From Escherichia phage vB_ESM-pEJ01, in sequence record OP114734.1: a stretch of DNA of 64,000 nucleotides; one strand, written 5' to 3'. Position numbers and translations under genes: made by a program. Below, piece after piece: positions 1 through 46,933 of the stretch; within the stretch, counting starts at the first letter, position 1; the number at the start of each line of letters is the position of its first letter. A model generated the notes under the pieces. That model did no database searches. It was not told the DNA's origin and saw only the letters and a program-made list of their open reading frames with translations.

Positions 1-81
1 TTCTTAGTAAACTGCAAAGAGTGAGTACCGACCGAAAACATTTTCTTTAGTGCTTCACGAGGTGCGATATTATCAATTTGT

Positions 82-588
82 TCAGTCATTATCAATACCA
101 TTCAAATCTGTCAATAATGCTTTTGGAATACGCGTGATCGTAATATCTGCATTATTCAGAATATCAGCCCAATCACGCCCACCATTTCGATCATATGTGT
201 CGCAATAGTATAGATGTTTAATTCCACTGTTTGCAATTGCTTTAGCGCAATCTGGACACGGTGAAGCAGTACACCACATACTAGCGCCTTCAATCGATAC
301 ACCGCTACGGGCAGCAAACAAAATAGCATTTAATTCAGCATGGATTTCGTTTTTCTGTGACCATGCACTATGCTCTGGTCGTTTTTCTGGGATCATTTTG
401 CCGTCATCATCCAGCCAACCGCTTTTATGTGCATGACAGCTACAATTTACTTGCCCTGCTGGAGTTCCGTTAAATCCAGTAGAAATGATTCGCCCGTCTT
501 TTTCGATCAGTGCTCCTACCTTCCACGAAACACATTTAGAGTTCTTTGCGATCAGATAGGCGATCTGCATGTAAGTTTGTGACAACAT
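82..588 (-). CDS. cd: dCMP deaminase
   Basis: 168 aa; zinc-binding deaminase motifs (HAE..., PCxxC); aligns with remembered T4 Cd; sits downstream of pseT as in T4. Confidence 0.9.
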   Translation of the reverse strand: MLSQTYMQIAYLIAKNSKCVSWKVGALIEKDGRIISTGFNGTPAGQVNCSCHAHKSGWLDDDGKMIPEKRPEHSAWSQKNEIHAELNAILFAARSGVSIEGASMWCTASPCPDCAKAIANSGIKHLYYCDTYDRNGGRDWADILNNADITITRIPKALLTDLNGIDND

Positions 589-609
589 AATATAATCCTC
601 ACATATTAA

Positions 610-813
610 TTAACCGTATACGCGAAAGTATTCTACTGATCCGTCGCTATACTGTTTTACATTGAATGTATTCACACCATGATTATTTCTCATGATGACA
701 TATACACTGCGACGTTCATCGCTAAACGGCATAACTGGCGCTGGTTCAATATCAACACTAAAACCACGTTTAGCAAGTGCTTCGCCTAATTGCTTGATTT
801 TATCGGTAAACAT
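610..813 (-). CDS. hypothetical small protein
   Basis: 67 aa track ORF tightly packed between pseT and cd in the same orientation. Confidence 0.4.
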   Translation of the reverse strand: MFTDKIKQLGEALAKRGFSVDIEPAPVMPFSDERRSVYVIMRNNHGVNTFNVKQYSDGSVEYFRVYG

Positions 814-1712
814 TAAAAGTCTCCGTAGTTAACCTGAAAACATTCTACACCAATTGAGCGGTACATGTCAACCACTTGATCACGGTCATCTACCGCCAAA
901 ACAACATGATAACGCGGTGCAATTTCAGAGAAGAAAATCTCTTTCTTCACTTCATGATCAGGACGACGATCATTAGTTTCACGTTGAAAGTGATCACTCG
1001 GTTCAATACCCTGTTCACGCAACCATTGCAGAGTATCTTCTTCGCAAACATCCTCACGCCCTGAGCATGTAATGATACGATAACCATTATCACGATACAG
1101 TTTAAGCATTTCGATCACTTGCGGACGCGGTTTATCTTCTTTGACCTTTGTCCAGTCAAACGGATGACGACCGCCCTTATCCGCTAATGTTCCATCAATA
1201 TCAAAGATCACTGCCTTCGGCAGCATGGTATTCGGTTTGTATACTTCTTGACCCATATATTCCTGGGTCAGATAAAATTGGTTACGCAAATGAGAAAGTG
1301 GAATTGCTTTCTCGCCTCGATAGAAATTACGTTTCTTTAGTGTCTCAAATGATTCATTGAACACTTGTTCAGTATACACCGCGTTAAATTCTTTTGCAAG
1401 TTCTTTGTAGAATACACGATGTTTTTCTTTCAGGTTAGTATCAGAGATAATGATACTTAATCCGCGTGATAGAGTCTCACGAGCAATCATTCTCTGAATA
1501 GACTCTACCAGTTTTTCTTTTTCCTTAGTATACTTGTATTTCAAATGTGAGTCAACACCAAACAACATAAGACGAAGATCATCGCGATTCACATTACGAT
1601 AATTACTAAACCGTTTACACGTTTCCATAGCCCATGTAGTTTTACCGGACCCAGAACAACCAACGGTTAAAATCACTTCACATTTCGGCATTATTTCTCC
1701 TTCGGTTTGCAC
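813..1712 (-). CDS. pseT: polynucleotide 5'-kinase / 3'-phosphatase
   Basis: 299 aa; P-loop GCSGSGKTT at N-terminus, HAD motif DIDGTL, C-terminus VECFQVNYGDF matches remembered T4 Pnk end. Confidence 0.9.
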   Translation of the reverse strand: MQTEGEIMPKCEVILTVGCSGSGKTTWAMETCKRFSNYRNVNRDDLRLMLFGVDSHLKYKYTKEKEKLVESIQRMIARETLSRGLSIIISDTNLKEKHRVFYKELAKEFNAVYTEQVFNESFETLKKRNFYRGEKAIPLSHLRNQFYLTQEYMGQEVYKPNTMLPKAVIFDIDGTLADKGGRHPFDWTKVKEDKPRPQVIEMLKLYRDNGYRIITCSGREDVCEEDTLQWLREQGIEPSDHFQRETNDRRPDHEVKKEIFFSEIAPRYHVVLAVDDRDQVVDMYRSIGVECFQVNYGDF

Positions 1713-2143
1713 CGTTCCTCATTAAGTTCTTTTCGATAATAACACATGATCAACTTACTTTCAAGTGTATATCTCTTAATATCCGCAAGCCAGACTCTAA
1801 ATTTTTGGGAGTCCTCCCACGACATAGAAACTCTAGGTTTACCGTCTATTGTATCCACTTTCAGGTCAATGTCAACTTTTTCTATTGGTGCTGGTAGTGA
1901 AGGATGTAATTTCGGTTCCTGTGAATAATGGTCCAGTGTACACGAAGAAAGCGCAAATACAATAGGCACAGCGAATACATGGATTATGGCGGTCTGAAAA
2001 TTCTTATGTGCTTTCTTAAACATCCAGTGTATCGCAAAAATTGAAAACACCATCAGGATAATAATGCTTGCACCTATCCCCAGATAATCAACCAGATTAA
2101 AATTGCTTATCTGCTCTTGCGTAGGCAATATTTCTATGCTCAT
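1691..2143 (-). CDS. membrane protein with lipoprotein-like signal (candidate spanin partner)
   Basis: 150 aa; strong SD AAGGAGG 8 nt before the ATG; hydrophobic segment followed by KKAHK...AVPIVFALSSC lipobox-like motif; position equals T4 pseT.2/pseT.3 spanin locus. Confidence 0.35.
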   Translation of the reverse strand: MSIEILPTQEQISNFNLVDYLGIGASIIILMVFSIFAIHWMFKKAHKNFQTAIIHVFAVPIVFALSSCTLDHYSQEPKLHPSLPAPIEKVDIDLKVDTIDGKPRVSMSWEDSQKFRVWLADIKRYTLESKLIMCYYRKELNEERCKPKEK

Positions 2144-2463
2144 TTAGTAGCCTCCTTTAATTCTTCGGTAAACTCCTTAAATGAGTCATTAAGCTGTTTC
2201 TCTACCAACTTGGGTTTTTGTGCTACTACATAGCCTCGTGTAGCGTCTTTCATTGCTTTGTTTTGTTCTTCTGCAAACTTAGTTCTTATTCCGTACATCT
2301 CCTTTTGTAGTGAGTCTACGACCTTCATCTTCTCATCTGTCTTTTTCTTATACTCTGTAAATTCCTGATTCAGTCGATCTACCTCCTTTTTATTTTCCCA
2401 CCACATATTTCCACCTACCCCCAGCAACACAGAGATGATAACAATGTATACCAGCTTTGACAT
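2140..2463 (-). CDS. i-spanin-like protein (N-terminal TM plus coiled coil)
   Basis: 107 aa from MSKLVYIVIISVLLGVGG; single N-terminal TM then charged coiled-coil region; start re-set to ATG at 2463 to avoid overlap with rnlA. Confidence 0.4.
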   Translation of the reverse strand: MSKLVYIVIISVLLGVGGNMWWENKKEVDRLNQEFTEYKKKTDEKMKVVDSLQKEMYGIRTKFAEEQNKAMKDATRGYVVAQKPKLVEKQLNDSFKEFTEELKEATK

Positions 2464-2507
2464 ATTACCCCCAACGACAAAAGGCGGGGAACTAGCCCCG
2501 CTTATTA

Positions 2508-3677
2508 TTACCAATCAATCTTATCAGCCGGAATCAGTTTCTTATAATTCCGTAGATAGTAAGTTTTCATTGAATCCAGAATACGGTCATAATCAAGACC
2601 ATCAAATGCAATCATCAGACACATGAAAATATATGCTTGTGCATCACCATGTTTACGTGATTCGATAGTCGCATTTGATGCATATGTCTTTCTGTCTTCT
2701 CCCGCGTGTGCGTTATAAAATTCTGTTGCTGTCGTGAAGGCATTGCGAAGAATAGACCTGAATGCTTCCTCGAATAACTCGATTCGTTCCAGTGCTTCTG
2801 GTTCGCCTTCATATGCAGCACGCAAATCATCGGTTTCGCTTTCTACGACATAGTAGATCAGGTTATTAGGAAACATCGATGTGTTTTTAATGTTATGCAC
2901 ACCAATATACCATTCACTCTTCACCTTGAACAGTTGACCGTCTTTAGTGCGTGCAACAATTCCTTCGATACCTTCTGCGGTCCGAACTTCATCAAGAATA
3001 TTGCTAAAACGCGCTGAATCAACCTGTAGCGCATTTACCAGATGAGGACGTAGGATTGCGTCAGCAAATAGCATTTGATGCGGTACGTACTCTCCTGTGA
3101 CGTTATGGCGTACATTCAGAAGTGTTAGCGACGGTTCAGAATATTCTACAACAATTCGGTTGCTGGGTGCTGTATATTCAAAGTTGAAAGTATAATCAGA
3201 CCCAATATCAGCAATCTTAGCGCGTAGATCCGCATACTTCTCTGAATACAGAAGACCGTTTGCTCTCTCTGCCTGGCTTGAGTACAAGGCCGCTTTAGAC
3301 TTCAACTGAACATAGCCGGTATCAATGTATGTGCTTACTAGACTACCGTCCATTTTGTCCATGACCATTTCCACATCTTCCGGCTTAAAGCGAGCGCGAT
3401 CATTCTCACCCAAATTAAAAAACTTCTCCATAGGACGAGATGCAATGCGGACCGGACGACCTTTATCGTCAATTTCAAACATGATCCCGCGACACTCTAA
3501 CGCATCTGGTTTATTCCACATTTCAGGTTTGCTCAAGTACAGATAGCTAAAAATGCGCATACGGGTTTGCATCGCCGTAATTTCATCTTTGTAGTAGAAC
3601 GTATCAGATCCGTCACATAGTGCCATCAGATTTTTGAACAATACTAAAACTTTTTTGTTGTTTTCTTTTGTTGACAT
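2508..3677 (-). CDS. rnlA: RNA ligase 1
   Basis: 389 aa track ORF; strong colinear match to remembered T4 gp63 (LFKNLMALC, ECRGIMFE, RIASRPMEKFFNL); the track 5' end overlaps denA by 65 nt so the true start is probably downstream. Confidence 0.85.
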   Translation of the reverse strand: MSTKENNKKVLVLFKNLMALCDGSDTFYYKDEITAMQTRMRIFSYLYLSKPEMWNKPDALECRGIMFEIDDKGRPVRIASRPMEKFFNLGENDRARFKPEDVEMVMDKMDGSLVSTYIDTGYVQLKSKAALYSSQAERANGLLYSEKYADLRAKIADIGSDYTFNFEYTAPSNRIVVEYSEPSLTLLNVRHNVTGEYVPHQMLFADAILRPHLVNALQVDSARFSNILDEVRTAEGIEGIVARTKDGQLFKVKSEWYIGVHNIKNTSMFPNNLIYYVVESETDDLRAAYEGEPEALERIELFEEAFRSILRNAFTTATEFYNAHAGEDRKTYASNATIESRKHGDAQAYIFMCLMIAFDGLDYDRILDSMKTYYLRNYKKLIPADKIDW

Positions 3678-4124: not shown

Positions 4125-4523
4125 TTAACTTTCCAGAATATCGCGAGCTTCGTTACGCTCCTTGATGATTTTCAGGACAAATTCCAGTTTTTCTTTGTTC
4201 AGCGTTCCATTTTCCATTGCTTCTTTGACGGTAAACACTCCGCCACCTTGCCCGTATACAGTGACAGTGATTTCACCTAACATCGTGGTATGAAAACCTC
4301 CAATTTTCGGTGATTCGAAAGAAACAATTACCTCGCGGACAGTATTACCGTCGTTGATTTCTGAGAGGGTAATGTCGTTTTTGTAGGCGGTTGCTTTAAC
4401 CATACGGATCAGCATAGTCTGATCTGGGGAGATGGTCATTTTGTCCATTGCATGTTGCAATGCAGCGTAACCGAAAACTTTAACGAAGTCCAGAACGTCT
4501 TTGCGAGTTTGAAATTTAATCAT
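4125..4523 (-). CDS. hypothetical protein
   Basis: 132 aa; own promoter (4557..4585) and SD AAGGAG 7 nt upstream; terminator downstream. Confidence 0.55.
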   Translation of the reverse strand: MIKFQTRKDVLDFVKVFGYAALQHAMDKMTISPDQTMLIRMVKATAYKNDITLSEINDGNTVREVIVSFESPKIGGFHTTMLGEITVTVYGQGGGVFTVKEAMENGTLNKEKLEFVLKIIKERNEARDILES

Positions 4524-4556
4524 CTTGATACTCCTTAGTTGTTTTGGTATGGGAGT

Positions 4557-4585
4557 ATCTTACTACTCCCGTGATATGCTGTCAA
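4557..4585 (-). promoter_or_regulatory. sigma70-like early promoter (TTGACA-17-TAAGAT) with -10 in hairpin loop
   Basis: minus-strand TTGACA at 4580-4585, 17 nt spacer, TAAGAT at 4557-4562; hairpin GGGAGTA/TACTCCC encloses the -10. Confidence 0.55.
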
Positions 4586-4593
4586 CTGCTTTT

Positions 4594-4743
4594 TTATGCA
4601 ACCGCAAACATCAACATTTGAACATTCTTGGCTGTCTGGCTTTCAAAGTTCTGACATTCTTTGATAATGTCCTCTACTTTCTCGCCGGAGATCTCCGCGT
4701 AAGTTTCGATTGCCATTTTCAGTACCGAGTCAAAGTTGTTCAT
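4594..4743 (-). CDS. small protein (49 aa), not in ORF track
   Basis: ATG at 4743 preceded by AAGGAG; own upstream promoter; translates MNNFDSVLKMAIETYAEISGEKVEDIIKECQNFESQTAKNVQMLMFAVA. Confidence 0.4.
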   Translation of the reverse strand: MNNFDSVLKMAIETYAEISGEKVEDIIKECQNFESQTAKNVQMLMFAVA

Positions 4744-4783
4744 TTGATTCTCCTTAAAGTGTATTTCGTTTCGATGGGGGGGT

Positions 4784-4812
4784 ATATTACTACCCCCGTT
4801 TCATGCTGTCAA
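4784..4812 (-). promoter_or_regulatory. sigma70-like early promoter (TTGACA-17-TAATAT) with GGGGG/CCCCC hairpin
   Basis: same cassette architecture as 4557..4585. Confidence 0.5.
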
Positions 4813-5031
4813 CTACTTTTTAATGACAAGTTCGAATTTTGCTACCTTGCGTCCTCGTTTATTGAAAGCAACCCACGGACGGTTTTCAATGTAGAACAAT
4901 TCTTCGCCAATAATGAATACTGGCTGATTGTAAAGGCGACCCATCAGGTCACGCTGGCGAATGGTAGTAGATTCGTATACTTCGCCTACTACAAAGTGCT
5001 TGCTGATAGAGTCGGTGCAAGTAAATTTCAT
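4813..5031 (-). CDS. small protein, member of a paralog pair (see 32267..32473)
   Basis: 72 aa; SD AAGGAG; C-terminal ...VAKFELVIKK resembles ...VAKFEIIE of ORF 32267..32473. Confidence 0.5.
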   Translation of the reverse strand: MKFTCTDSISKHFVVGEVYESTTIRQRDLMGRLYNQPVFIIGEELFYIENRPWVAFNKRGRKVAKFELVIKK

Positions 5032-5064
5032 TTTGATTCTCCTTTGTTTCGTTTCGATGTGGGT

Positions 5065-5093
5065 ATATTACTACCACCGTTATTCAGTGTCAA
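5065..5093 (-). promoter_or_regulatory. sigma70-like early promoter (TTGACA-17-TAATAT)
   Basis: third copy of the promoter cassette. Confidence 0.5.
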
Positions 5094-5100
5094 CTACTTT

Positions 5101-5319
5101 TTACTTGTTGTATTCATTCCACCATTGGGTTAGCTTATCAATTATTTTTGTGTTTCTATCCAACTTCTCCCACCGTTTTCTAGGGTTTATCAACCGGAAT
5201 AGGTAAGGTGTACTTGTTAAGTGAACTCGGTCAATGTAGTGATTGATGTACTGCTTTTCGATTCTAAGTTTCATCTTTTTACGATGAAAATATGCAATGA
5301 CTTGTTCTTCTGTTTCCAT
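5101..5319 (-). CDS. hypothetical small basic protein
   Basis: 72 aa; SD GGAGG; promoter 5344..5372 upstream. Confidence 0.5.
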   Translation of the reverse strand: METEEQVIAYFHRKKMKLRIEKQYINHYIDRVHLTSTPYLFRLINPRKRWEKLDRNTKIIDKLTQWWNEYNK

Positions 5320-18250: not shown

Positions 18251-21200
18251 ATGGCAGATTTTTCTCAACATTTCAAGGCCACCTTTGGCTTTGACGCTGG
18301 TAATGAAAAGGTCGTCAATGTAGCATACGCAGATAAAAACACATCAACGGATGCGGTCAACGTTGAATTTTTCAATTACCATAATGGTATTACTCAGTAT
18401 GACACAACTCGCGGTTATGATCAATACGGAACTACAATCTATCAAAACCGTCCGTATTATGCAAAAGAAGATATCACAAAGCCAGCAGGTGATTTTGACC
18501 CGACTAAATGGCAAGCACTGCGCACGGACCCACGTTGGGATTATGTTGCAGCAACTTCCGGCGATACTCCTTTAAAGTCTGGTGATTATATCGCAGCGGA
18601 CTGTCAGTTTGCAAACTTGACATTCTCAATGCCTACTAATCCGGCAGAGGGAGACACTATAACAGTAAAAGATATCGGTGGCAAGTGTGGTGTTAACGAA
18701 TTATCGTTCTTGAGTACAGGACATGAGTTTTACCATAACGGTAATGTGTACAACCGAAAATGGTATTGCACTACCCCGTATGCAATGAACTATTTCATCT
18801 TTGTTCGTAATCGTTGGCATGTTTATCAGACAGGAACAGAGCCACGCGGTGTGTACGCACAGCCAGCGATTGATGCTATTCAAATGCAGAATGGTGATCA
18901 GGTATTTCGTCGTAGTTCGTTGGGTAATATTACCTTAGTGCTTCCTAAGTTTGCCAACAATGGCGACATGATCCAGACTACAGACCTTGACGGATTAACC
19001 GCAACCAACCACGTTACGGTTAAAGTTCATGAGCACGCAGAAGAACAATCAATTGGCACGTCCGGTCTAAAAGAGATTATCGGTAAGCGTAGCGGTCATG
19101 GTGTATTCATCTTTGACAAGACGGAAAACTTATGGCGTTTGTGGGATGGTGATCAGTCTGTTCGTCTTAAACCGATCATCGATGACACTCGCTTGCAACC
19201 TAATAGCTATGTTGCTGTATTTGGTGATCGTGATGTTACTCTGACGCTGCCGACCAATGTCGAGCCGGGTGATCGTATTCAAGTTTCTATGCAGTATATG
19301 AACGGAAACCAGAATTGCCGTATTATCACCGCCACAGAGGATACAAAAATCCTTATGCAGAAAAACATGGTTCAGTTTCCTAAGCGTAGCGAGTACCCAT
19401 TCAATGGGACCGATACATGGACGGGAGTATCTGAATTGTCTTTCAACGCTGCAAATGATTATGTACCTTATGTGGAGTTCTCTTATTCAGAAGGTGATGA
19501 TGGTAAGAAATACTGGTTGGTGGCACATGCTCACCCGATTGTAGAACGAGTAGATCCGACTCGTAAAGATCGTGTTGGTGTAATTGCACTGGCTACCCAA
19601 ACTGAAACGAATAAAAACCATGAAGAGAATCCTAGCGACGAAGTTGCAGTAACACCAAAAATGCTGGCTAATAAAACCGCCAACGAAACTCGACGCGGTA
19701 TTGCTCGCATTGCGACTCAAGCGGAAACGCATCAAGATACTGGTTCCAACTTCCTGGATGATGTTATCGTTACGCCTAAAAAGTTAAATGACTGTGTTGC
19801 TACCGAAGCCCGTCGTGGTGTGATGGAAATTGCAACCCAGCACGAAACCAATGAAGGTTTAGACGATACCCGCGCTATTACTCCTAAGAAATTAGAAGAA
19901 CGTCGCGCTTCCGAAGATCTCGCTGGTATTGCTGAAATTGTTCAGGCTGGCGGCAGTGCTGCCGCTCGACGTGGCGAAGCTGGTACAGGGATCTATAACA
20001 TCAATGACCATGCTAAAATTGTTACGCCAAAAAACATCAACGAAGTCAAGGCGACCGAAACTTCCCGTGGTGTTGGCTATCTGGCAACTGACGCGGAAGT
20101 GCAAGGGGCTACAGAATCAACCCCGCAAGATGCTTTACTCATCACGACTCGCACGCTAACGAAACGTACTGCTACCGAATCGCGCACTGGTATCGCTGAA
20201 ATTGCAACTCAGGAAGAAACAAACTTAGGTCAAAGTGATAACCATATCATCACGCCTAAAAAGCTGCATACTCGCCGAGCAACGGAAACTTTACACGGTT
20301 TAGCAGAAATTGCAACTCAACCGGAGTTTGACGCAGGTCGTGACGATTCTCGCATTTCTACCCCATTGAAGATTAAAACCTTCTTTGAGAATGCACAGCG
20401 TTTGAAAGTAGATCCGACTCAGGGGCTTAACCTTACTGGTGATTTGTGGCAAGGTATCATGATCAGCGGTCTGGATGCAACCGAAGACACAAAAGGTGTC
20501 GCTAAAGTTGCGACTACTCAGCTTACTGACGCTGGTCAAGATGATACTACAATCATCACGCCTAAAAAGCTGCAAGGCAAGAAGGCCACCGAAGGTAAAG
20601 AAGGCATTATCCGAGTTGGTACTCAAGCCGAAACCGTGGCTGGTATTATGGACAATGTAGCAATTTCTCCGAAGAACTTCAAATATGTTGTTCAGACAGA
20701 GGATACATGGAAAGCAACCGAAGCGCGTCGTGGCTTCTTGAAAGTTGCTACTCAGGAAAACTGTTTTGTTGGTGATAATCTGCAAGGTTCTACTCAAGAA
20801 CTAGGAAACTACCAGCATGACGGAATTGCTGTTACCCCTAAAGGATTAAACTACGCACTTGCTAATTTCTTACCTAAGATGGCAACCGCTCAGAATAGTT
20901 TGAAATTAGGTAACGTAGAGGCCGCTAAATGGGCGCGTAGAGACATTGACCAGACCATAGAGAGCAATTACACGTTTAATAAAAACGTTAACGTGAAGGG
21001 CGATTTAGAGTGCTTAAAATCAGGTTCCTTTGAAACTCTGTCTGTGACTAAGAACTCGACCGATGTTCCGAGTAATGGTCATCTGGTGTTGGGTGAGCGT
21101 GGAGTTGACGGTCACACCGGAATTACTCTGCATGGCACAACCGCATCGGAAGGCATGAAAAACTCTTGGTCTATTATCGTTGGTGGTACTGGAACAGCGC

Positions 21201-21991
21201 AAGTTGTTGATAGTGATGCTATCGCTTTCGGTAAAATCAATGATGGTGGAGTCGTTCAGCATTACGCCTTTGCTATGAAACACAATGGCGATGTGACAGC
21301 ATATAGAGACTTTATTGCAGGTCGTAACCTGTATGCGAAACAAGGCGGGTTATACATTGTTGACCAGTCTAATCCGGCAATGACTCGTTCCCCAGATGGT
21401 ATGCTGAATATCGGTCACGGTGGAAGTGTTAACATCAAGGCAGGTCATCAAACGTTAACTACAGAGATCGCCGGACAGAAATATCAGATCGTACACGCAG
21501 GAAACGCTGACGAAGTTCTTAACCGTCAGTTTGTTAAGAATGCTGGCGATACAATGGTCGGTAAGCTGACTATGGATAATGCGCCTATTGTTTCCGTTAA
21601 GCATGAAGCTAGCGCGGCAACCGCTCCGGCAATCGGTAACATCGGTTTCTGGAATATGCGAGTTACTACCCAGAACATCAAAGAAACTTATCCAGAGAAG
21701 AAAAACGGTACTCTGATGCAATGGGGTACTGACGCGGACGGGCTTACCCAGCTTTGGTCCCCTGATGGTACTCATAAACATTATATCCGTTCCGGTACTG
21801 GTGGTCAATGGACAGCATGGGGTGAAATTTACACCAAACAGAATAAGCCTACCGCTCAGGAAATCGGGGCAGTAGTTGCAGAAGGTGGTTTAATGAACTC
21901 TATGACGGTTCGTGATTGGATCAAAGTTGGTAATGTTAAAATCATCGCCAATAATCTGACTCGTACCGTAGACTTTATCTGGGAAGACTAA
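18251..21991 (+). CDS. 34: long tail fibre proximal subunit gp34
   Basis: 1246 aa; colinear with remembered T4 gp34 including repeated ...ITPKKL...ATE.RRG... motifs and C-terminal ...VDFIWED. Confidence 0.93.
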   Translation: MADFSQHFKATFGFDAGNEKVVNVAYADKNTSTDAVNVEFFNYHNGITQYDTTRGYDQYGTTIYQNRPYYAKEDITKPAGDFDPTKWQALRTDPRWDYVAATSGDTPLKSGDYIAADCQFANLTFSMPTNPAEGDTITVKDIGGKCGVNELSFLSTGHEFYHNGNVYNRKWYCTTPYAMNYFIFVRNRWHVYQTGTEPRGVYAQPAIDAIQMQNGDQVFRRSSLGNITLVLPKFANNGDMIQTTDLDGLTATNHVTVKVHEHAEEQSIGTSGLKEIIGKRSGHGVFIFDKTENLWRLWDGDQSVRLKPIIDDTRLQPNSYVAVFGDRDVTLTLPTNVEPGDRIQVSMQYMNGNQNCRIITATEDTKILMQKNMVQFPKRSEYPFNGTDTWTGVSELSFNAANDYVPYVEFSYSEGDDGKKYWLVAHAHPIVERVDPTRKDRVGVIALATQTETNKNHEENPSDEVAVTPKMLANKTANETRRGIARIATQAETHQDTGSNFLDDVIVTPKKLNDCVATEARRGVMEIATQHETNEGLDDTRAITPKKLEERRASEDLAGIAEIVQAGGSAAARRGEAGTGIYNINDHAKIVTPKNINEVKATETSRGVGYLATDAEVQGATESTPQDALLITTRTLTKRTATESRTGIAEIATQEETNLGQSDNHIITPKKLHTRRATETLHGLAEIATQPEFDAGRDDSRISTPLKIKTFFENAQRLKVDPTQGLNLTGDLWQGIMISGLDATEDTKGVAKVATTQLTDAGQDDTTIITPKKLQGKKATEGKEGIIRVGTQAETVAGIMDNVAISPKNFKYVVQTEDTWKATEARRGFLKVATQENCFVGDNLQGSTQELGNYQHDGIAVTPKGLNYALANFLPKMATAQNSLKLGNVEAAKWARRDIDQTIESNYTFNKNVNVKGDLECLKSGSFETLSVTKNSTDVPSNGHLVLGERGVDGHTGITLHGTTASEGMKNSWSIIVGGTGTAQVVDSDAIAFGKINDGGVVQHYAFAMKHNGDVTAYRDFIAGRNLYAKQGGLYIVDQSNPAMTRSPDGMLNIGHGGSVNIKAGHQTLTTEIAGQKYQIVHAGNADEVLNRQFVKNAGDTMVGKLTMDNAPIVSVKHEASAATAPAIGNIGFWNMRVTTQNIKETYPEKKNGTLMQWGTDADGLTQLWSPDGTHKHYIRSGTGGQWTAWGEIYTKQNKPTAQEIGAVVAEGGLMNSMTVRDWIKVGNVKIIANNLTRTVDFIWED

Positions 21992-40540: not shown

Positions 40541-42364
40541 TTATGACGCCATCCATGCCTTCCTCATGTCTGAATCTTCGCTATAGAGCAAATCGAATAG
40601 CTCTTTATAGTTTTCCGGTAACGTGATGATCTCCATGACAGGATCGTTGATCACGCGATGATAGTCTGATTCTGTGAGCGATGCTAAACCTTTGATATAT
40701 CGAATGTTGTAACCTTTGATATTATCTCGGTCGTTCTCGAAATCTTCTAGGTCATAATACCATCGAACATCATCACCTTTCTTTGGTTCAGCAATGATAA
40801 TAGGTGTTTTGATAAACCGGATTCGTCCATCTTCGAACAATTCAGGCCAACGTGCAAAGAAAGAGATCAGACTAGGTTTAATAGACCCGATCCCGTCGGT
40901 ATCAGCGTCTGTCATAATCGCAATATTTTTGTATTGCATAACTTCCAATGCATCAACACCAAATTGCAAGCCAGTGATCGCCATGATGTTAAAAATTTCG
41001 GCGTTATTAACGATCTTTGCCTCCGGTTGTTCCCACGTTGTAAGAGTTTTGCCTCGCAACGGGAAACCTCCATGTAAATCTTGATCGCGTACAGAGATCA
41101 GATAGTTGATCGCGGAATCACCTTCCGTCAAAAACAGGGTAGTTTCTGCGTCAGTTCCAATAAGGTTAGCTTTAACGTGTTTTGCCACCTTAGCCCGTTT
41201 CGCTGCCTTTGCTGCCTTAGTCGCTGCCGCTTTATCTGCTGCCTCTTTGCGTGCCAAGACTACAGCAATAATAGGCATGATAATGTTTTCTTTCTTCGCA
41301 ATGACTTTAGCCAGCTTTTTAAAATCAAGATCAATATGACGCTTGATATCACCAGTCGGGTTAGTCAAGCGTTCTTTTGTCTGTGAATCAAAACGAAGGT
41401 TAGGCAATTCACGAACAATAAGAATACAGGTCAATCCAGATTTAACCGCAGCTTTAGTAACATCAACCTTATATTCTTTCTTGATTCGTTTTACAATCTC
41501 TTCACAAAGATCATCTGTCACATAATCAACGTGTGTTCCCCCGTTTTTGGTAAACAGACCGTTAGCAAAGGATACTGATTTAAAACCTTCTCCCTCGACC
41601 GCCGGAACTAGGGCAAGTGAAAAGTTTTTATCTTCAATGACAAACGGATCATCATTGTATAGTTTAGCATAATCCTTGAACTTACTAACAATACGTTTAC
41701 CATTAAACTTAAACGTGATCTTAGGAAATATTACGCTCAATGATTGCAGACGATCATGAACAATATCTAAAACAGAGTTGTCCATCATATAACCTTCGAA
41801 GTGGTCGAAGTCTGGACAAAATGTAACCTTCGTTCCCTTCAATTTTGATGGTTTTGATGACCATGTGACATTTTCAGCACCGTTTGTGCATTGAACGGTC
41901 ATTTCTGTTTCGCCGTCACAGGTCACACCAGTAAACCAATCGCTAAAGAAATTTGATAACGACGACCCAACACCGTTCATCCCTTGCGTTAATCGATTGG
42001 TATCATCAAAGTTAGACCCTGCTTTTGTTCGTGTCCATGCGGCTACAGGTTGCGGAATCTGCGTACCCTCTGGGGTAGTAACCATATGTTGAGGAATACC
42101 GCGACCATTGTCTGTTACCGTAACAATATTGTTTTGGATATCGACGCTAATCACATTGGCAAATTCAAAGTTAGTGCGGATCGCCTCGTCTACAGAGTTG
42201 TCGATGATCTCATCAATGATTTTAACCAGTCCAGGAACGTATGAAATTTTTGTCCATTTACCGAACAGGAAACGTTGATGTTCTTCGTAAGTTGTTGATC
42301 CTATATACATTCCTGCACGCTTAAGGACATGTTCACGATCAGATAAAATGCGAAACTCACTCAT
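40541..42364 (-). CDS. 39: DNA topoisomerase II large (ATPase) subunit gp39, unsplit
   Basis: 607 aa; GyrB-like GHKL ATPase and TOPRIM motifs; one continuous ORF covering the region that T4 splits into genes 39 and 60. Confidence 0.88.
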   Translation of the reverse strand: MSEFRILSDREHVLKRAGMYIGSTTYEEHQRFLFGKWTKISYVPGLVKIIDEIIDNSVDEAIRTNFEFANVISVDIQNNIVTVTDNGRGIPQHMVTTPEGTQIPQPVAAWTRTKAGSNFDDTNRLTQGMNGVGSSLSNFFSDWFTGVTCDGETEMTVQCTNGAENVTWSSKPSKLKGTKVTFCPDFDHFEGYMMDNSVLDIVHDRLQSLSVIFPKITFKFNGKRIVSKFKDYAKLYNDDPFVIEDKNFSLALVPAVEGEGFKSVSFANGLFTKNGGTHVDYVTDDLCEEIVKRIKKEYKVDVTKAAVKSGLTCILIVRELPNLRFDSQTKERLTNPTGDIKRHIDLDFKKLAKVIAKKENIIMPIIAVVLARKEAADKAAATKAAKAAKRAKVAKHVKANLIGTDAETTLFLTEGDSAINYLISVRDQDLHGGFPLRGKTLTTWEQPEAKIVNNAEIFNIMAITGLQFGVDALEVMQYKNIAIMTDADTDGIGSIKPSLISFFARWPELFEDGRIRFIKTPIIIAEPKKGDDVRWYYDLEDFENDRDNIKGYNIRYIKGLASLTESDYHRVINDPVMEIITLPENYKELFDLLYSEDSDMRKAWMAS

Positions 42365-42467
42365 TATTAAACCTCTTCATAACATAACCATAACTTACTG
42401 CAACCGCCACAAAGACGGCTGCAACAATCATATTAAAAATTGAGTGATTGTCAAGTATATGACTCAT
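42357..42467 (-). CDS. possible hydrophobic micro-protein (36 aa), not in ORF track
   Basis: ATG overlaps stop of the Zn-ribbon gene (ATGA); MSHILDNHSIFNMIVAAVFVAVAVSYGYVMKRFNNE; stop overlaps gene 39 start. Confidence 0.3.
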   Translation of the reverse strand: MSHILDNHSIFNMIVAAVFVAVAVSYGYVMKRFNNE

Positions 42468-42637
42468 GACACGCGCACATTTTTATCATAGTACCCGCCA
42501 TTAATCCCGCGCGGGGCAGTTAATCCCTGTTTGCATTCTTTACCACATTCAGGGCATTCTGCCTTTTCACGCTCGGAAATTTTGCGGATTTTCTGAAATT
42601 GACCGTGTTCTTCACAAGAATAATCATATAATGGCAT
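42464..42637 (-). CDS. FmdB-like zinc-ribbon protein
   Basis: 57 aa from MPLYDYSCEEHG...ECPECG (CxxH...CxxC); start re-set to avoid overlap with dexA. Confidence 0.5.
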   Translation of the reverse strand: MPLYDYSCEEHGQFQKIRKISEREKAECPECGKECKQGLTAPRGINGGYYDKNVRVS

Positions 42638-42638
42638 A

Positions 42639-43307
42639 TTATCCCCTTTGTTTCTTAACTGAATTTGGATCTGGATTTTCTGGTAGGTCTTCCAGACCCA
42701 TAGCATAACGTTGTGCATAGATTAGCATAAGAATATCGCGAGCGCAATCATGAATTGCATCATGTGCGATAAAACCATCTAGCGTACCCATTGGTAACGG
42801 GCATTCACACATACCACGATGCATCAATGTACGCTCAATGGCGGTGCGAACATCTCGGATGTTCCAGAATCGCACAGGTTCAAGATTGAACGTCTCACGG
42901 GTATTGTGTGCACGGCGGATCATATCAACCAGTAACGGAATATCAAACGCATTACCGCGTGACCACATTACGGATTTAACCGGATCTACTCCTACAGATT
43001 CACAGAATGCGTTAAAACGCGCTAAACCTTCTTTAGTTGATACTTCCGTACCATTTGTGATTAATTGCTTTCTCATGCCTTCTGAGGCGGTATTCTTCCA
43101 CCATTCAACCACACCATGATCAAACACCCTTACACCTTTCTGGGAAGGAATATCAAATTTTACCAGAAAGGAATTGTCAACCAGTTCTTTAAATGTAGGT
43201 GGGTTGTGCGGATCTTCTTTAAATCCGATTGCCGCCATATTGATCACCGCCCCATCAGGCGGATAACCTAAACTTTCAAAGTCAATCATTAAATCCACTG
43301 GAAGCAT
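42639..43307 (-). CDS. dexA: exonuclease A (DnaQ-like 3'-5' exonuclease)
   Basis: 222 aa; colinear with remembered T4 DexA (LEPVRFWNIRDVRT, GTLDGFIAHDAIHDCARDILM, YAMGLED). Confidence 0.88.
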   Translation of the reverse strand: MLPVDLMIDFESLGYPPDGAVINMAAIGFKEDPHNPPTFKELVDNSFLVKFDIPSQKGVRVFDHGVVEWWKNTASEGMRKQLITNGTEVSTKEGLARFNAFCESVGVDPVKSVMWSRGNAFDIPLLVDMIRRAHNTRETFNLEPVRFWNIRDVRTAIERTLMHRGMCECPLPMGTLDGFIAHDAIHDCARDILMLIYAQRYAMGLEDLPENPDPNSVKKQRG

Positions 43308-43308
43308 T

Positions 43309-43554
43309 TTAAATATCCTCCGCTATATGCCGGAACAACTCCAGATCGTTTTTATCTAGAATGAAACCGCTACAATCAATAATCCCTTTACCGTAATTAT
43401 CAGTTAACAGTCGGTCCGTTGCCATGTATGCGCGTACTTTGTTGTTAAAATTAATTACATGTTGTGCATAATCACAATGAATCTTTTGACGGTTCCACGC
43501 GACAATTGATTGTAGATGTATTACATTAGCCACATTATTAATAACAACCATATC
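43309..43554 (-). CDS. hypothetical protein
   Basis: 82 aa from the internal ATG (DMVVINN...); the track start at 43614 is a GTG inside a duplicated segment. Confidence 0.4.
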   Translation of the reverse strand, partial: DMVVINNVANVIHLQSIVAWNRQKIHCDYAQHVINFNNKVRAYMATDRLLTDNYGKGIIDCSGFILDKNDLELFRHIAEDI

Positions 43555-43603
43555 AAAACCCTCGCTTAGTGGAATGTTCTGGCATTTTATTGATACATTC
43601 AGC
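43548..43603. repeat. direct repeat copy A (~56 bp) of gene-junction sequence
   Basis: near-identical to 43725..43790 (catatcaaaa[a]cctc[g/t]cttagtg[g/a]aatg...cattttattgatacat[t/g]cagc). Confidence 0.6.
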
Positions 43604-43724
43604 TTGGTAGTCACGAGATTTTTTTGACGAATTAAGAGCTACAGCCAAAAATCCTGTAACTGTTCGTTTGTCATTTTTGGCTTACACCGCGTATCTAAAC
43701 CCTTCGTTCTTCTAGCTTCATTAG

Positions 43725-43790
43725 CCATATCAAAAACCTCTCTTAGTGAAATGCTCGATCATTTTATTGATACATGCAGCCTCACTATCG
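43725..43790. repeat. direct repeat copy B
   Basis: second copy, covering the 3' end of small ORF 43730..43897. Confidence 0.6.
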
Positions 43791-43897
43791 CCGGACACGT
43801 TCCAGCCGTATAGACCCCATCTAAAGCACATGGTAACAGTTCCATTGTGACGGCTTACCGTCACATCATTAAATTCTGGGATACTTCGCATAATCAT
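43730..43897 (-). CDS. small protein (55 aa), not in ORF track
   Basis: ATG at 43897 with SD GAGGAAA; MIMRSIPEFNDVTVSRHNGTVTMCFRWGLYGWNVSGDSEAACINKMIEHFTKRGF; first gene after dda. Confidence 0.45.
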   Translation of the reverse strand: MIMRSIPEFNDVTVSRHNGTVTMCFRWGLYGWNVSGDSEAACINKMIEHFTKRGF

Positions 43898-43907
43898 AAT
43901 AATTTCC

Positions 43908-45299
43908 TCAAATATAGTCTACTCGATACCTCGCACGGGTAACACCCACATATAATAACTGCATTGCCAATTCAAAGTCAACATTGTCTGTACACATGCA
44001 AGGAGTATACAGGAACACGCGGTCTACGCTGATCCCTTGTGACTTATGAATGGTGCAAGCTGGTAATGCTTTTACATTCAAGAACATACGCTTCATCGTC
44101 CAGAATGAATCCCAATCTGGTTTAAATTTTGGATTCTCTTTCTTCATTTCGCGATATTGTCCGGCGACCGTATTCAGATAGATAGAGAAAATGTTCTTCT
44201 GACGTTGTTCTGTCAGAATGTTGATTTCTACTAAATCTGGTTTATCTGTAGTGATTCCGACTGCATCTAAACCTACTTTCTGATTTAGGATTTCTTTGTC
44301 TTCGTCATCATCGACGCTTTCCACTTTCAGAGTATATCCTAAAACTGGTTGCGGATCTACCCCCGTGCAACGTAATGTAAATTCACGCGGGATGACCTCT
44401 TTAACTCGGATCATCTCACCATTGTTAAAAATAACATTGGGAATCTTCTTCCCGCGTTCATCTCGCAGATATTCGATCAATGGTTCCTGAGTAACCAGAA
44501 TTTCATCTACAATCACTGGTTCATCGGTGTTATAAACGCGCTTACGTACAATTTCATTGAGTTTTTCGACGCTCTTGTTAGTGTAGGCCAGAATACGGTT
44601 TTCTAGAAGGTCTTCCGGCGTTTTAACGGTTTCGAAATAATGCTTCATAAACTCCGGCAGAGTTGAGCTATGGAATACACCCTCGTTGCCGCACTGCTTT
44701 TCGAATACCCATTTACCATTACGGACAGCGGTCGCCACATCAATTATTGGCGCATTAGATCGTTTAATCTCTGTAAGTTCTACATTCTGAAACCTTTCAT
44801 CGGTGAAGAAAGGAGAGATCGACGTTGCACCGCTCGGATCAACTGGTCGTAACTGGTACAGATCACCCACGGCAATAATAACAATTCGACCGTTGATACT
44901 CTTCATGAGAATATCAAATAGTTTCTTATCGACCATACTCGCTTCATCAACAATGATGATCTGAACATCATCTAGCTTAGGAGTATCTTTTTGCTCAAAT
45001 ACTTGAGTATCTTCATAGTTGGTCGGGTTTAGTCGCAGTAGTGCATGTAAAGTAAATGCTTGACGACCTACCGCTTTACTCAAAACTTTTTTAGCCTGGT
45101 GGGTAGGCGTTGCCAAAACCACACCAGTTACACCACGACGGACCATTTCCTGAACAATGAATTTCATCATTGCGGTTTTACCAGTACCCGCCGCACCACG
45201 GACAGTTGTATGCTTCTTTTGTTCAATGCGTTTCATTAGAACATCAAAAGCATGTTTTTGCCCGTCTGTTAACATATCGAAAGTTAATACTCTGCTCAT
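43908..45299 (-). CDS. dda: Dda DNA helicase (SF1)
   Basis: 463 aa; Walker A GAAGTGKT, colinear with remembered T4 Dda (FTEIKRSNAPIIDVATAVRNGKW, YVGVTRARY). Confidence 0.9.
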   Translation of the reverse strand: MSRVLTFDMLTDGQKHAFDVLMKRIEQKKHTTVRGAAGTGKTAMMKFIVQEMVRRGVTGVVLATPTHQAKKVLSKAVGRQAFTLHALLRLNPTNYEDTQVFEQKDTPKLDDVQIIIVDEASMVDKKLFDILMKSINGRIVIIAVGDLYQLRPVDPSGATSISPFFTDERFQNVELTEIKRSNAPIIDVATAVRNGKWVFEKQCGNEGVFHSSTLPEFMKHYFETVKTPEDLLENRILAYTNKSVEKLNEIVRKRVYNTDEPVIVDEILVTQEPLIEYLRDERGKKIPNVIFNNGEMIRVKEVIPREFTLRCTGVDPQPVLGYTLKVESVDDDEDKEILNQKVGLDAVGITTDKPDLVEINILTEQRQKNIFSIYLNTVAGQYREMKKENPKFKPDWDSFWTMKRMFLNVKALPACTIHKSQGISVDRVFLYTPCMCTDNVDFELAMQLLYVGVTRARYRVDYI

Positions 45300-45613
45300 T
45301 ATCCTAAAATCCTCACCTTGCGAACACAGATAGTATTGAGTTCTCGCCGTACCCGTTCTTTTTCATATTCAGGAATTTTATATTCGATACCATCCCGAAC
45401 AATTTCAGAAGACCGGATTATGCCAAATTTTCGTTTAGGTACAACCTTGTATTTCGGTTCACCCGCCAATAGACTCTCACAATAATCTATCTGATCACAC
45501 ATTGACGCTAACGCAGCATCATGTGTTTCGCAAGTTAGGACGCGACCTTTCGCGTCCACTGAGTATTGAAAGAATCCGTCTTTATCACGATAACATACAG
45601 CAAATACATGCAT
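45299..45613 (-). CDS. hypothetical protein
   Basis: 104 aa track ORF upstream of dda. Confidence 0.4.
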   Translation of the reverse strand: MHVFAVCYRDKDGFFQYSVDAKGRVLTCETHDAALASMCDQIDYCESLLAGEPKYKVVPKRKFGIIRSSEIVRDGIEYKIPEYEKERVRRELNTICVRKVRILG

Positions 45614-46368
45614 TATAAACCTACCTTCGCTTTCATCAATTCAATCCACGACGCATCAATCGGAAGCCCGTATTTCACGCGTTCTTTTTGTGCTGGCGTT
45701 AAGTTCTCATACTTAGAAAGAGATTCAATCAAAACGCTGGTATATTTTAGCACGACTTCGGTATTGTTTGCAATAGCCTTAAGTTTTTCTTCTTTCTTGT
45801 TGATTTCGCTAAGGGCTTGCTTGAGATCTGCAATTTTCTGATAACGTTCTTCCATACGGAAGAGAGTATTTTTAATCGCTCGCTCGGCTGCCTCTGCTTT
45901 CTCCGGTTCGTTGTGCTTTTTGTGGCGCTCGATTGCTAACTTCTTTTCTTCGATTGCCATTTCCTGATTTTTGATGCGATTCTCGTTAAGTTCGATCCAC
46001 TCGATGTACTTCGCACGTAGGGCAATTTCATCATCAGAAAGTTTACCGTTAGTTCCTAGTTCCTGGATCTCTTTAAGAGATTCGATAGTGTGATTGCCAC
46101 GGAAAGAATTGTATTTCAGTTTAACCGGAATTACACTGCCATCAACATATCCTAGATTGCAATCAATGCGCTCTAAGGAGAGTCCATCATCACCTTCACC
46201 GAACGCTTCACCGGAATAGGCGCAATGAGTCTGACGGTAAATGTTGCGCACAGTGACTAAGCTCATAGAGAAGTCTTTGTTGCGACGTGAAGCGCCAGCC
46301 ATGATAGAGTTCAGACGGAAAACAACCAGCGCCAATTCTTCGTTAGATTTAAAAGCAAACAGTTTCAT
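45613..46368 (-). CDS. hypothetical protein with C-terminal coiled coil
   Basis: 251 aa; promoter 46398..46426 and SD AAGGAG; position corresponds to the T4 srd/mod region but identity not established. Confidence 0.4.
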   Translation of the reverse strand: MKLFAFKSNEELALVVFRLNSIMAGASRRNKDFSMSLVTVRNIYRQTHCAYSGEAFGEGDDGLSLERIDCNLGYVDGSVIPVKLKYNSFRGNHTIESLKEIQELGTNGKLSDDEIALRAKYIEWIELNENRIKNQEMAIEEKKLAIERHKKHNEPEKAEAAERAIKNTLFRMEERYQKIADLKQALSEINKKEEKLKAIANNTEVVLKYTSVLIESLSKYENLTPAQKERVKYGLPIDASWIELMKAKVGL

Positions 46369-46397
46369 AATTGATTCTCCTTAGTTGGCATGTGTGT

Positions 46398-46426
46398 ATT
46401 ATTGTCTATCTGGTTTGTGCTGTCAA
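46398..46426 (-). promoter_or_regulatory. sigma70-like promoter (TTGACA-17-AATAAT)
   Basis: canonical spacing upstream of ORF 45613..46368. Confidence 0.4.
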
Positions 46427-46429
46427 CAC

Positions 46430-46933
46430 TTAAATTAAAGAAAATTTGTAAATCTCTATCAGATCGCCATTACACGCGTAAACTTCCTCGATCTCATCAA
46501 GGATCATGGTCGTCCCTGTCTTGTATATGCACTCGCGCTCATCTGCCAACATAGCATACAAAGACAGTCGAGTAGTCGGATTGTCATACTCTTTAGACAC
46601 CACTCGGTCAATAGCATGTTCGTAATAATTCATGCAAGGCTTGGTAGGTTTTATTGCAATAATCTTTCCTGTTGCATAAACATCGGTTGCAAAGTCCTCT
46701 GCTGTTGATTGCAGTGGCGTAAAGCTCATAGGACGCTCTACAACGAAAGAATCGCCTACAATTAAGGTATCCAGCTTACGGCCTTCTCTTTTGCTCACAC
46801 CGCGATACAAGGCTTCATGATGCACTAACCGCTCAGTCTTTTCAATCAATCCATTAAGGATCGACATATCGATATTTTCTTTAGAGTTCATCACCTCATC
46901 AATGATGTTAAGTTCTTCTGGTGTAAATTGCAT
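46430..46933 (-). CDS. hypothetical protein (weak ADP-ribosyltransferase-like R/S-T/E-x-E pattern)
   Basis: 167 aa; YRG..., ...QSTAEDF..., ...ADERE... in the order expected for an ART triad; located where T4 carries modA/modB; speculative. Confidence 0.3.
   Translation of the reverse strand: MQFTPEELNIIDEVMNSKENIDMSILNGLIEKTERLVHHEALYRGVSKREGRKLDTLIVGDSFVVERPMSFTPLQSTAEDFATDVYATGKIIAIKPTKPCMNYYEHAIDRVVSKEYDNPTTRLSLYAMLADERECIYKTGTTMILDEIEEVYACNGDLIEIYKFSLI

Follow-up and report, generated by a model that had tools for sequence, protein, structure and literature searches.

The window, a stretch of 64,000 nucleotides from Escherichia phage vB_ESM-pEJ01 (OP114734.1), belongs to a Krischvirus, an RB49/Phi1-like T4-type phage of the group of coliphages that includes RB49, Phi1, JSE and GEC-3S. 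In the region considered here it is 95-99% identical at the DNA level to Krischvirus genomes, with vB_EcoM_G37-3 as the best match (98.7%). The cluster of small genes found there is read from the minus strand, and its genes follow one another as dda, ORF010, ORF009.1, ORF009 and dexA. The Dda helicase gene (43908..45299, minus strand) forms the upstream flank of the cluster and the exonuclease A gene, dexA (42639..43307, minus strand), the downstream flank; the gene for the gp39 topoisomerase (40541-42364) is encoded on the same strand. ORF010 (43730..43897, minus strand; phrog_16162) encodes a predicted beta-beta-beta-alpha mini-protein of 55 aa, and ORF009 (43309..43551, minus strand; phrog_15021) a protein of 80 aa, its ATG at 43551 being preceded by a Shine-Dalgarno sequence. 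The gene between them, ORF009.1 (43553..43728, minus strand), corresponds to ORFan009.1 of Phi1 (phrog_37371); it encodes 58 aa in intact relatives and is frameshifted in this phage.

In Phi1, ORF009, ORF009.1 and ORF010 likewise lie between dexA and dda, and RB49 is without 177 bp at this place. An intact 58-aa middle gene is found in Phi1, where it is annotated as phi1p009.1, and in G37-3, GEC-3S, kvi and PTE-Eco09. Flanked by ORF010 and ORF009, with dda farther upstream and dexA farther downstream, the window's gene has the position of the Phi1-type ORFan009.1 cassette. Its 177/178-bp unit is 95-99% identical in DNA to 17 records, and the translation with the frame restored matches phrog_37371 (E=2e-42). 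It is like the Phi1 gene (phi1p009.1, ABR24519.1) and the orthologues of GEC-3S, G37-3, kvi and ECD7 in its locus and in both of the repeats described below, and unlike them in a private 1-nt deletion that truncates the ORF to 29 aa. Pfam gave no significant assignment for ORF009, ORF009.1 or ORF010, and a Foldseek comparison of the ORF010 model with PDB and BFVD gave no significant match beyond its own orthologue.

Two segments of 56 nt within this cluster, at 43548-43603 (copy A) and 43725-43780 (copy B), are identical at 48 of 56 positions (86%) in an ungapped alignment, with a start-to-start spacing of 177 nt. The preliminary description of this DNA, which had been made from the letters alone, correctly reported a segment of about 56 bp occurring twice, but it put the identity at about 90% and extended copy B to 43790, ten positions beyond the measured end. 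It had also proposed comparing the locus with itself and with related genomes. The former comparison recovered the pair as the strongest local repeat in the window: in an all-offset scan of the whole 64 kb (offsets 20-3000, 56-nt windows) it ranked first with 48 matches, the runner-up having 44. The latter found the two-copy arrangement in 17 public records. A degenerate pattern built from both copies matches these two sites alone in the window and nothing in 100 dinucleotide shuffles, which is a weak check, as a pattern derived from the copies themselves is circular as a significance test. Outside both ends of the 56-nt repeat, similarity drops at once to background in the ungapped profile and in the alignment. 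A search of the 64-kb window for the DNA unit, its TIR and its peptide motif returned just the two known sites.

Each copy consists of the last 16 codons and the stop codon of a small gene, a GAGG Shine-Dalgarno sequence and the ATGG with which the next gene begins. On the coding strand the unit reads GCTGMATGTATCAATAAAATG NNN GAR CAT TYC ACT AAG NGA GGK TTT TGA T ATG G, and the encoded peptide is A-x-C-I-N-K-M-x-E-H-x-T-K-R-G-F-stop (..CINKMxEHxTKRGF*). The junction has the layout GAGG-N5-TGA-T-ATGG, such that the Shine-Dalgarno sequence lies within the last codons and a single spacer base separates the stop codon from the ATG and first G of the downstream gene, with which the unit ends on its 3' side. 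Of the 56 nt, 51 are coding or belong to the stop codon, leaving almost no intergenic space. In copy B (minus strand) the unit is made of ORF010 codons 40-55 (AACINKMIEHFTKRGF), the TGA stop, GAGG and the ATGG start of ORF009.1. In copy A (minus strand) it is made of the ORF009.1 C-terminus (..AECINKMPEHSTKRGF*), the equivalent Shine-Dalgarno sequence and the ATGG start of ORF009. Between the copies lies the cassette body (43604..43724, minus strand), 121 nt here and 122 nt in intact relatives, which contains ORF009.1 codons 2-41. The earlier reading of copy B, as the C-terminus of a 55-aa gene (43730-43897, minus strand) followed by the ATG of a 29-aa ORF (43639-43728), agrees with this anatomy. 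Copy A had been taken as the N-terminal extension of an ORF at 43309..43614, and this has to be revised: its true frame is that of the ORF009.1 C-terminus, which was read in another frame. Copy A does overlap a mechanical 101-aa GTG-ORF at 43309-43614, an out-of-frame read-through; because ORF009 starts at the ATG at 43551 in all annotated relatives, giving 80 aa, the longer ORF is a mis-call.

Relative to Phi1 and G37-3, one T of a T6 run (gene sense) in ORF009.1 is absent from the window, leaving T5, seen on the plus strand as A5 at 43647-43651 against six in the intact genomes aligned. The second homopolymer of the gene, A7 in gene sense at 43619..43625, is intact here. The 1-nt deletion splits ORF009.1 into a 29-aa ORF (43639-43728) and an out-of-frame tail (43553-43648) that appears as a 31-aa TTG-ORF in the list of open reading frames, such that the window has no intact 58-aa frame. 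The span is 751 nt here, against 752 nt in all other two-copy records except those with different indels. The suggestion that the 29-aa ORF is a remnant was thus right, the two ORFs being halves of the one 58-aa gene known from Phi1. The window's ORF009.1 would be either a pseudogene produced by the frameshift or an allele that owes its deletion to a sequencing error. A programmed frameshift at T5 was dismissed on inspection of the sequence, which has no slippery heptamer and offers no supporting evidence.

ORF010 occurs in 58 Krischvirus records, and 17 of these have the cassette, corresponding to about 14 distinct phages after removal of RefSeq duplicates. The other 41 lack exactly 177 bp, equal to the body plus one repeat, and in them ORF010 abuts ORF009 via a single junction; this is the stretch of the Phi1-type cassette that is missing in RB49/JSE-type genomes. 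The two-copy arrangement spans several Krischvirus species, including members of Phi1/georgiaone, gec3s, ecd7 and the RB49 species, and the copies differ from one another by 2-14%, depending on the genome. The duplication had been described as recent, which does not fit an arrangement common to 17 records across several species with copies this far apart. A pattern scan of IMG/VR returned only three loci, ECD7 itself and two fragments, and added no diversity. Because the divergent KFS-EC/AV108 lineage, in which ORF010 is 69% identical, is single-copy, the one-copy state is most parsimoniously ancestral.

It is very probable that the 56-bp copies are direct repeats bracketing an optional 177-bp cassette, ORFan009.1, of Phi1-type Krischviruses. 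That this is a polymorphic ORFan locus of Phi1/RB49-type phages is already known. Arbiol et al. (2010, PMC2839356) list ORFan009.1 among seven phi1-unique genes and assign it to a small group of ORFans away from the hyperplastic regions; in the text available to us we found no mention of flanking repeats or of a chimeric make-up, and in the 2014 follow-up (Comeau et al., PMC4122927) none of the flanking repeats. The modest addition made here consists of the flanking 56-bp coding repeats, the likely chimeric origin of the gene, evidence for excision and conversion, and the private frameshift of this isolate.

Judged by its sequence, ORF009.1 is a chimera, with about 41 N-terminal residues from another coliphage small-protein family and 17 C-terminal residues from ORF010. 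This is concluded because the bodies of the two genes are dissimilar, they fall in different PHROGs, and the ORF009.1 body matches small ORFs of other coliphages. Measured against shuffles, the cassette body is not significantly similar to that of ORF010 (p=0.07 in DNA and 0.19 in protein), and cross-hits between the two PHROGs (37371 and 16162) are confined to the last 21 aa. Residues 6-36 of ORF009.1 are 52% identical over 31 aa to CDS0085 (59 aa) of the Gamaleyavirus (N4-like) nithesis, a match that is marginal database-wide (tblastn E 0.03) and scores 78 in pairwise comparison against 19.8 +/- 3.8 for shuffles, about 15 sd above them. The same residues also match ORFs of two other Gamaleyaviruses and of the jumbo Asteriusvirus TH47. 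These small ORFs share with ORF009.1 the core ..R.KP.MTNEQLQ.F....L..SK at residues 6-36, but their identity to it is about 42-52%, their N- and C-termini are different, and they are without the CINKM..TKRGF tail, the outside homologues of the body ending ..HPCIK* and ..KNESK*. The closest of the outside relatives have about 52% protein and 59% DNA identity to the body and are not collinear with it at the 3' joint. Recombination between small-gene cassettes, as first proposed, is the right kind of explanation, and what was duplicated is a gene junction: the 3' end, stop codon, Shine-Dalgarno sequence and start. The duplication covers the last 56 bp only, the intervening 121-bp body being unrelated to ORF010.

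The repeated segment is native to ORF010 (copy B) and was copied into ORF009.1 (copy A), because distant ORF010 homologues keep it at their C-terminus and it coincides with a predicted helix. In the AlphaFold2 model of ORF010 (pLDDT 85) the beta-beta-beta-alpha arrangement places the helix at aa 39-51. The repeat begins at codon 40, and the duplicated DNA hence encodes essentially the predicted C-terminal helix. An unannotated Kagunavirus ORF is 35% identical to ORF010 over aa 8-53 and ends ..ADCINQLLQWATSRK; a 'NinH' label attached to this match belongs to the neighbouring gene. Two metagenomic mini-proteins (P0013 and P0016), with 47-55% identity to ORF010 and the endings ..ADCINNMVEYFTEGTR and ..AECINKMVEHFTK, retain [DE]CIN[KN]MVE[HY]FT in an exhaustive search, from which spurious multi-stretch matches to long repetitive proteins (e.g. 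P0012) were discarded. Word-indexed protein searches with ORF009.1 and ORF010 returned close relatives only and exposed frameshift variants. ORF010 thus has the features of its family (PHROG 16162), the beta-beta-beta-alpha fold and a C-terminal CIN[KN]M..[HY]FT helix, while ORF009.1 shares only the helix and is a partial copy rather than a family member. Another database sequence (P0011), in which ORF010 acquires a different tail from the left edge of the repeat, was not accepted as a third allele; it is a probable assembly chimera, in which phage DNA is joined to non-phage DNA, bacterial by eye and rRNA-like, on a low-coverage metagenome contig.

Some genomes carry traces of recombination at the repeats. 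In the single-copy phage PHB13, the junction that follows the ORF010 body matches copy A of phage 011D4 exactly, down to the private extra A of 011D4 and its CCAGAACATTCC signature, and the flanks are 011D4-like as well. This hybrid junction, known from that one partial genome record, indicates that the cassette was probably deleted when the repeats crossed over at their left edge. In Makalu001 the two copies are identical at 55 of 56 positions, which suggests that copy A may have been converted to ORF010-type sequence by gene conversion. Presence and absence of the cassette occur in all four combinations with the two ORF010 alleles and likewise with ORF009 alleles, implying either that recombination within 100 bp is frequent or that the cassette was lost repeatedly. 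Most single-copy genomes have a purely ORF010-type junction, and these could equally well be ancestral or products of a right-edge crossover. The RB49 junction was at one time taken as a further B/A hybrid; this was withdrawn, as more genomes show it to be a type-II ORF010 allele. Deletion between short direct repeats was reportedly described by Albertini et al. in 1982. Such deletion proceeds through homologous or short-homology recombination, and deletion endpoints in T4 are an instance of it. The case considered here is like such generic deletion in that one repeat and the intervening DNA are lost exactly and in that PHB13 shows the expected hybrid junction; applied to a repeat of 56 bp with 86-98% identity, there is nothing unusual in it.

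The origin of the cassette can only be reconstructed, its most likely course being as follows. The ancestor would have carried ORF010, the junction and then ORF009. A small-gene fragment of another coliphage lineage may then have been joined at the ATGG of the junction, after ORF010, with the return joint about 56 bp upstream in the ORF010 3' end, such that the junction would have been copied again. Joining could have been by template switching or by unequal exchange at short homologies, with ATGG as the candidate microhomology for one end and, less surely, ATGTATCAA for the other. The three Gamaleyavirus homologues all end ..CC ATG TAT CAA ATA[A/G], and their ATGTATCAA recurs in the left part of the repeat; a joint at this microhomology is plausible, although it was proposed post-hoc and the sequences do not align collinearly at that place. 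Under this scenario, the newcomer ORF would have gained a ready Shine-Dalgarno sequence and start codon, while ORF009 would have kept an equivalent of its own. Later the repeats would have served as substrates for homologous recombination, giving precise loss as in PHB13, conversion as in Makalu001, and reassortment against both flanks.

Several other explanations for the repeat were weighed. The preliminary description raised the worry that a single junction had been assembled twice, and the chance of this is negligible: 8 of 56 positions differ between the copies, 121 bp of unique DNA separates them, and the architecture recurs in 17 independently sequenced records, or some 14 phages, from different countries and laboratories, being annotated as ORF009.1 in Phi1 and discussed in publication. 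A tandem duplication of the whole of ORF010, after which the 5' two-thirds of the downstream copy diverged beyond recognition and selection or gene conversion kept its 3' third similar, would account for the 177-nt period, which is near the ORF010 unit of 169 nt, and conversion between the copies does appear to occur in Makalu001. It is nevertheless very unlikely, given that the bodies are without significant similarity in DNA or protein by the shuffle comparisons above and that the edge of the repeat marks a sharp fall in identity, from 86% to background; moreover, the ORF009.1 body has N4-like and jumbo coliphage homologues without the ORF010 tail, and ORF010 homologues have a beta-sheet body. 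A more probable alternative, though still an unlikely one, is that ORF009.1 was imported whole, with its ORF010-like tail, by homologous double crossover or by Campbell-type insertion of a mini-circle into the junction already present, the one-copy genomes then being a mix of never-inserted phages and revertants. Mini-circles formed between flanking repeats have been shown experimentally for other RB49/phi1 ORFans, the cassette reassorts freely against both flanks, and its precise excision is supported by PHB13. However, no donor with both body and tail was found outside the locus in GenBank phages, IMG/VR or protein collections, the outside homologues of the body end otherwise, and an import of this kind would move the origin of the chimera elsewhere rather than remove it.

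The repeat might also be a mobile regulatory cassette of the PeSL type, which combines an early promoter with a stem-loop terminator. PeSL-mediated modular shuffling and mini-circles are described for RB49 and phi1 by Arbiol et al. (2010, PMC2839356) and Comeau et al. (2014, PMC4122927), and most ORFan indels of these phages have been described as PeSL-associated. The logic is alike, with direct repeats flanking an ORFan that is present in one phage and absent in another: in PeSL shuffling as set out there, an ORFan is bracketed by direct repeats of about 50-100 bp, from which the downstream gene takes its expression signals, its absence from a sibling phage is precise and leaves one repeat, and repeat recombination is the proposed mechanism. 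The window also has PeSLs of its own at 4541-5106, and a promoter and stem-loop at about 42454-42395, some 1.1 kb from the repeats. However, a sigma70-like -35/-10 pair is absent from both copies, as is any hairpin resembling a terminator. The repeat carries no promoter, AT-rich UP region or stem-loop, only a Shine-Dalgarno sequence and a start codon, and it is coding sequence, such that the insertion would have created a protein chimera. The locus also lies outside the hyperplastic regions. A scan of 42300-46500 for promoters and terminators found nothing inside either copy, and as a positive control the same scan of 4400-5250 recovered TTGACA-17-TAAKAT in the window's PeSLs (4557-5093). With these differences a PeSL identity is highly improbable. 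An RNA element was likewise rejected, as the copies fold no better than shuffles (z = +0.27 and -0.82), their folds differ from each other, and neither has an Rfam match at E<=1. A transposon or insertion sequence with a target-site duplication was dismissed because the insert, a 121-bp coding fragment, has neither inverted repeats nor a gene for an enzyme such as a transposase or homing endonuclease, and the duplicated stretch measures 56 bp rather than 2-14 bp. The reading preferred here, direct repeats around an optional cassette, concerns the DNA repeat as a putative recombination scar and substrate and makes no functional claim for the proteins.

Once acquired, ORF009.1 seems to have become dispensable and to be decaying, because homopolymer frameshifts occur in several genomes and its pN/pS is relaxed. 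Besides the T6 to T5 change of the window, the A7 run is A6 in Makalu001 and A8 in ECD7, an A4 run within copy A is A5 in 011D4, and database protein variants (P0005-P0008) show further indels, namely T7, a double shift or a lost stop codon. These homopolymer indels, the window's included, could represent real decay or sequencing errors. Crude pN/pS values, calculated from 9-14 short sequences in pairs that are not independent, are 0.48 for ORF009.1 (0.81 for the repeat-derived part), 0.23 for ORF010 and 0.17 for ORF009; their direction fits relaxed constraint on ORF009.1.

For annotation, the 29-aa and 31-aa ORFs of this phage should be treated as the two halves of one frameshifted gene, and the repeat is no misassembly in need of 'correction'. 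A bolder possibility, and a distinctly improbable one, is that the ORF010 3' end and junction form a recurrent, non-PeSL 'docking' sequence within coding DNA that captures gene fragments, with homopolymers acting as on/off switches. Fragments from unrelated co-infecting phages, here N4-like, would then be expressed at once as in-frame chimeras sharing a C-terminal helix and provided with a Shine-Dalgarno sequence and start codon, and if this were true it would be a second, protein-fusing route of ORFan birth beside PeSL shuffling. Whether or not that is so, the locus offers a small, naturally replicated example of how tiny genes may be gained, fused, homogenised and lost in T4-type phages, with at least five states of it found in public genomes: ancestral, insertion, gene-converted, frameshifted and re-deleted. 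An insertion of this kind can create a new chimeric reading frame, and for ORFan turnover of the RB49/phi1 type without a PeSL, a 56-bp duplication of coding sequence appears to suffice.

Independent +1/-1 indels occur in several public genomes in three homopolymer runs: those at 43619-43625 and 43647-43651 in ORF009.1, the 58-aa ORFan between ORF010 and ORF009, and the A4 run of copy A of the 56-bp direct repeat (nucleotide records L004, L005 and L006; protein variants P0005-P0008). These indels reflect either repeated, real inactivation or systematic homopolymer sequencing errors.

A metagenome contig (ENA ERZ1745275 NODE_2514; L024, positions 1501-3150) carries Krischvirus dda and the body of ORF010, the 55-aa gene just downstream of dda, joined to other DNA; the joint coincides exactly with the repeat unit's left edge. 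Beyond it the DNA looks bacterial by eye and includes rRNA-like sequence. Rather than representing a third allele, this contig, which comes from a low-coverage metagenome assembly, is most likely chimeric.

Elsewhere in the window, an element of ~58 nt is present in three minus-strand copies (4541-4598, 4768-4825 and 5049-5106), successive copies lying 227 and 281 nt apart. Each contains TTGACA-17-TAAGAT/TAATAT with a G/C stem-loop across the -10 box, for example GGGAGTAGTAAGATACTCCC. These elements look like PeSL promoter/stem-loop cassettes, and they probably bracket small ORFans. Closer to the 56-bp repeat, a minus-strand promoter-like site (TTGACA-16-TATGAT; 42454-42395), within or beside small ORF006.1 and upstream of gene 39, is directly followed by a 14-bp stem-loop; it is possibly a PeSL, ~1.1 kb from the repeat. 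A weak promoter-like match, TAGACT-17-TATGAT (43921-43893, minus strand; 9/12 matches), in the region of the 10-nt dda-ORF010 gap is probably due to chance.

A separate 45-nt coding repeat has seven in-frame copies (19679-20758) within the 1246-aa plus-strand ORF 18251-21991, at irregular spacings that are all multiples of 3; by eye, it resembles a tail-fibre-type protein repeat.

Outside Krischvirus, a small unannotated ORF at the genome end of Raoultella phage RP180 (L017, 1174-1344), directly following a gene annotated NinH, is an ORF010 homologue. Judged by this homology, the ORF010 family extends to Kagunavirus siphophages, in whose annotations it is absent.
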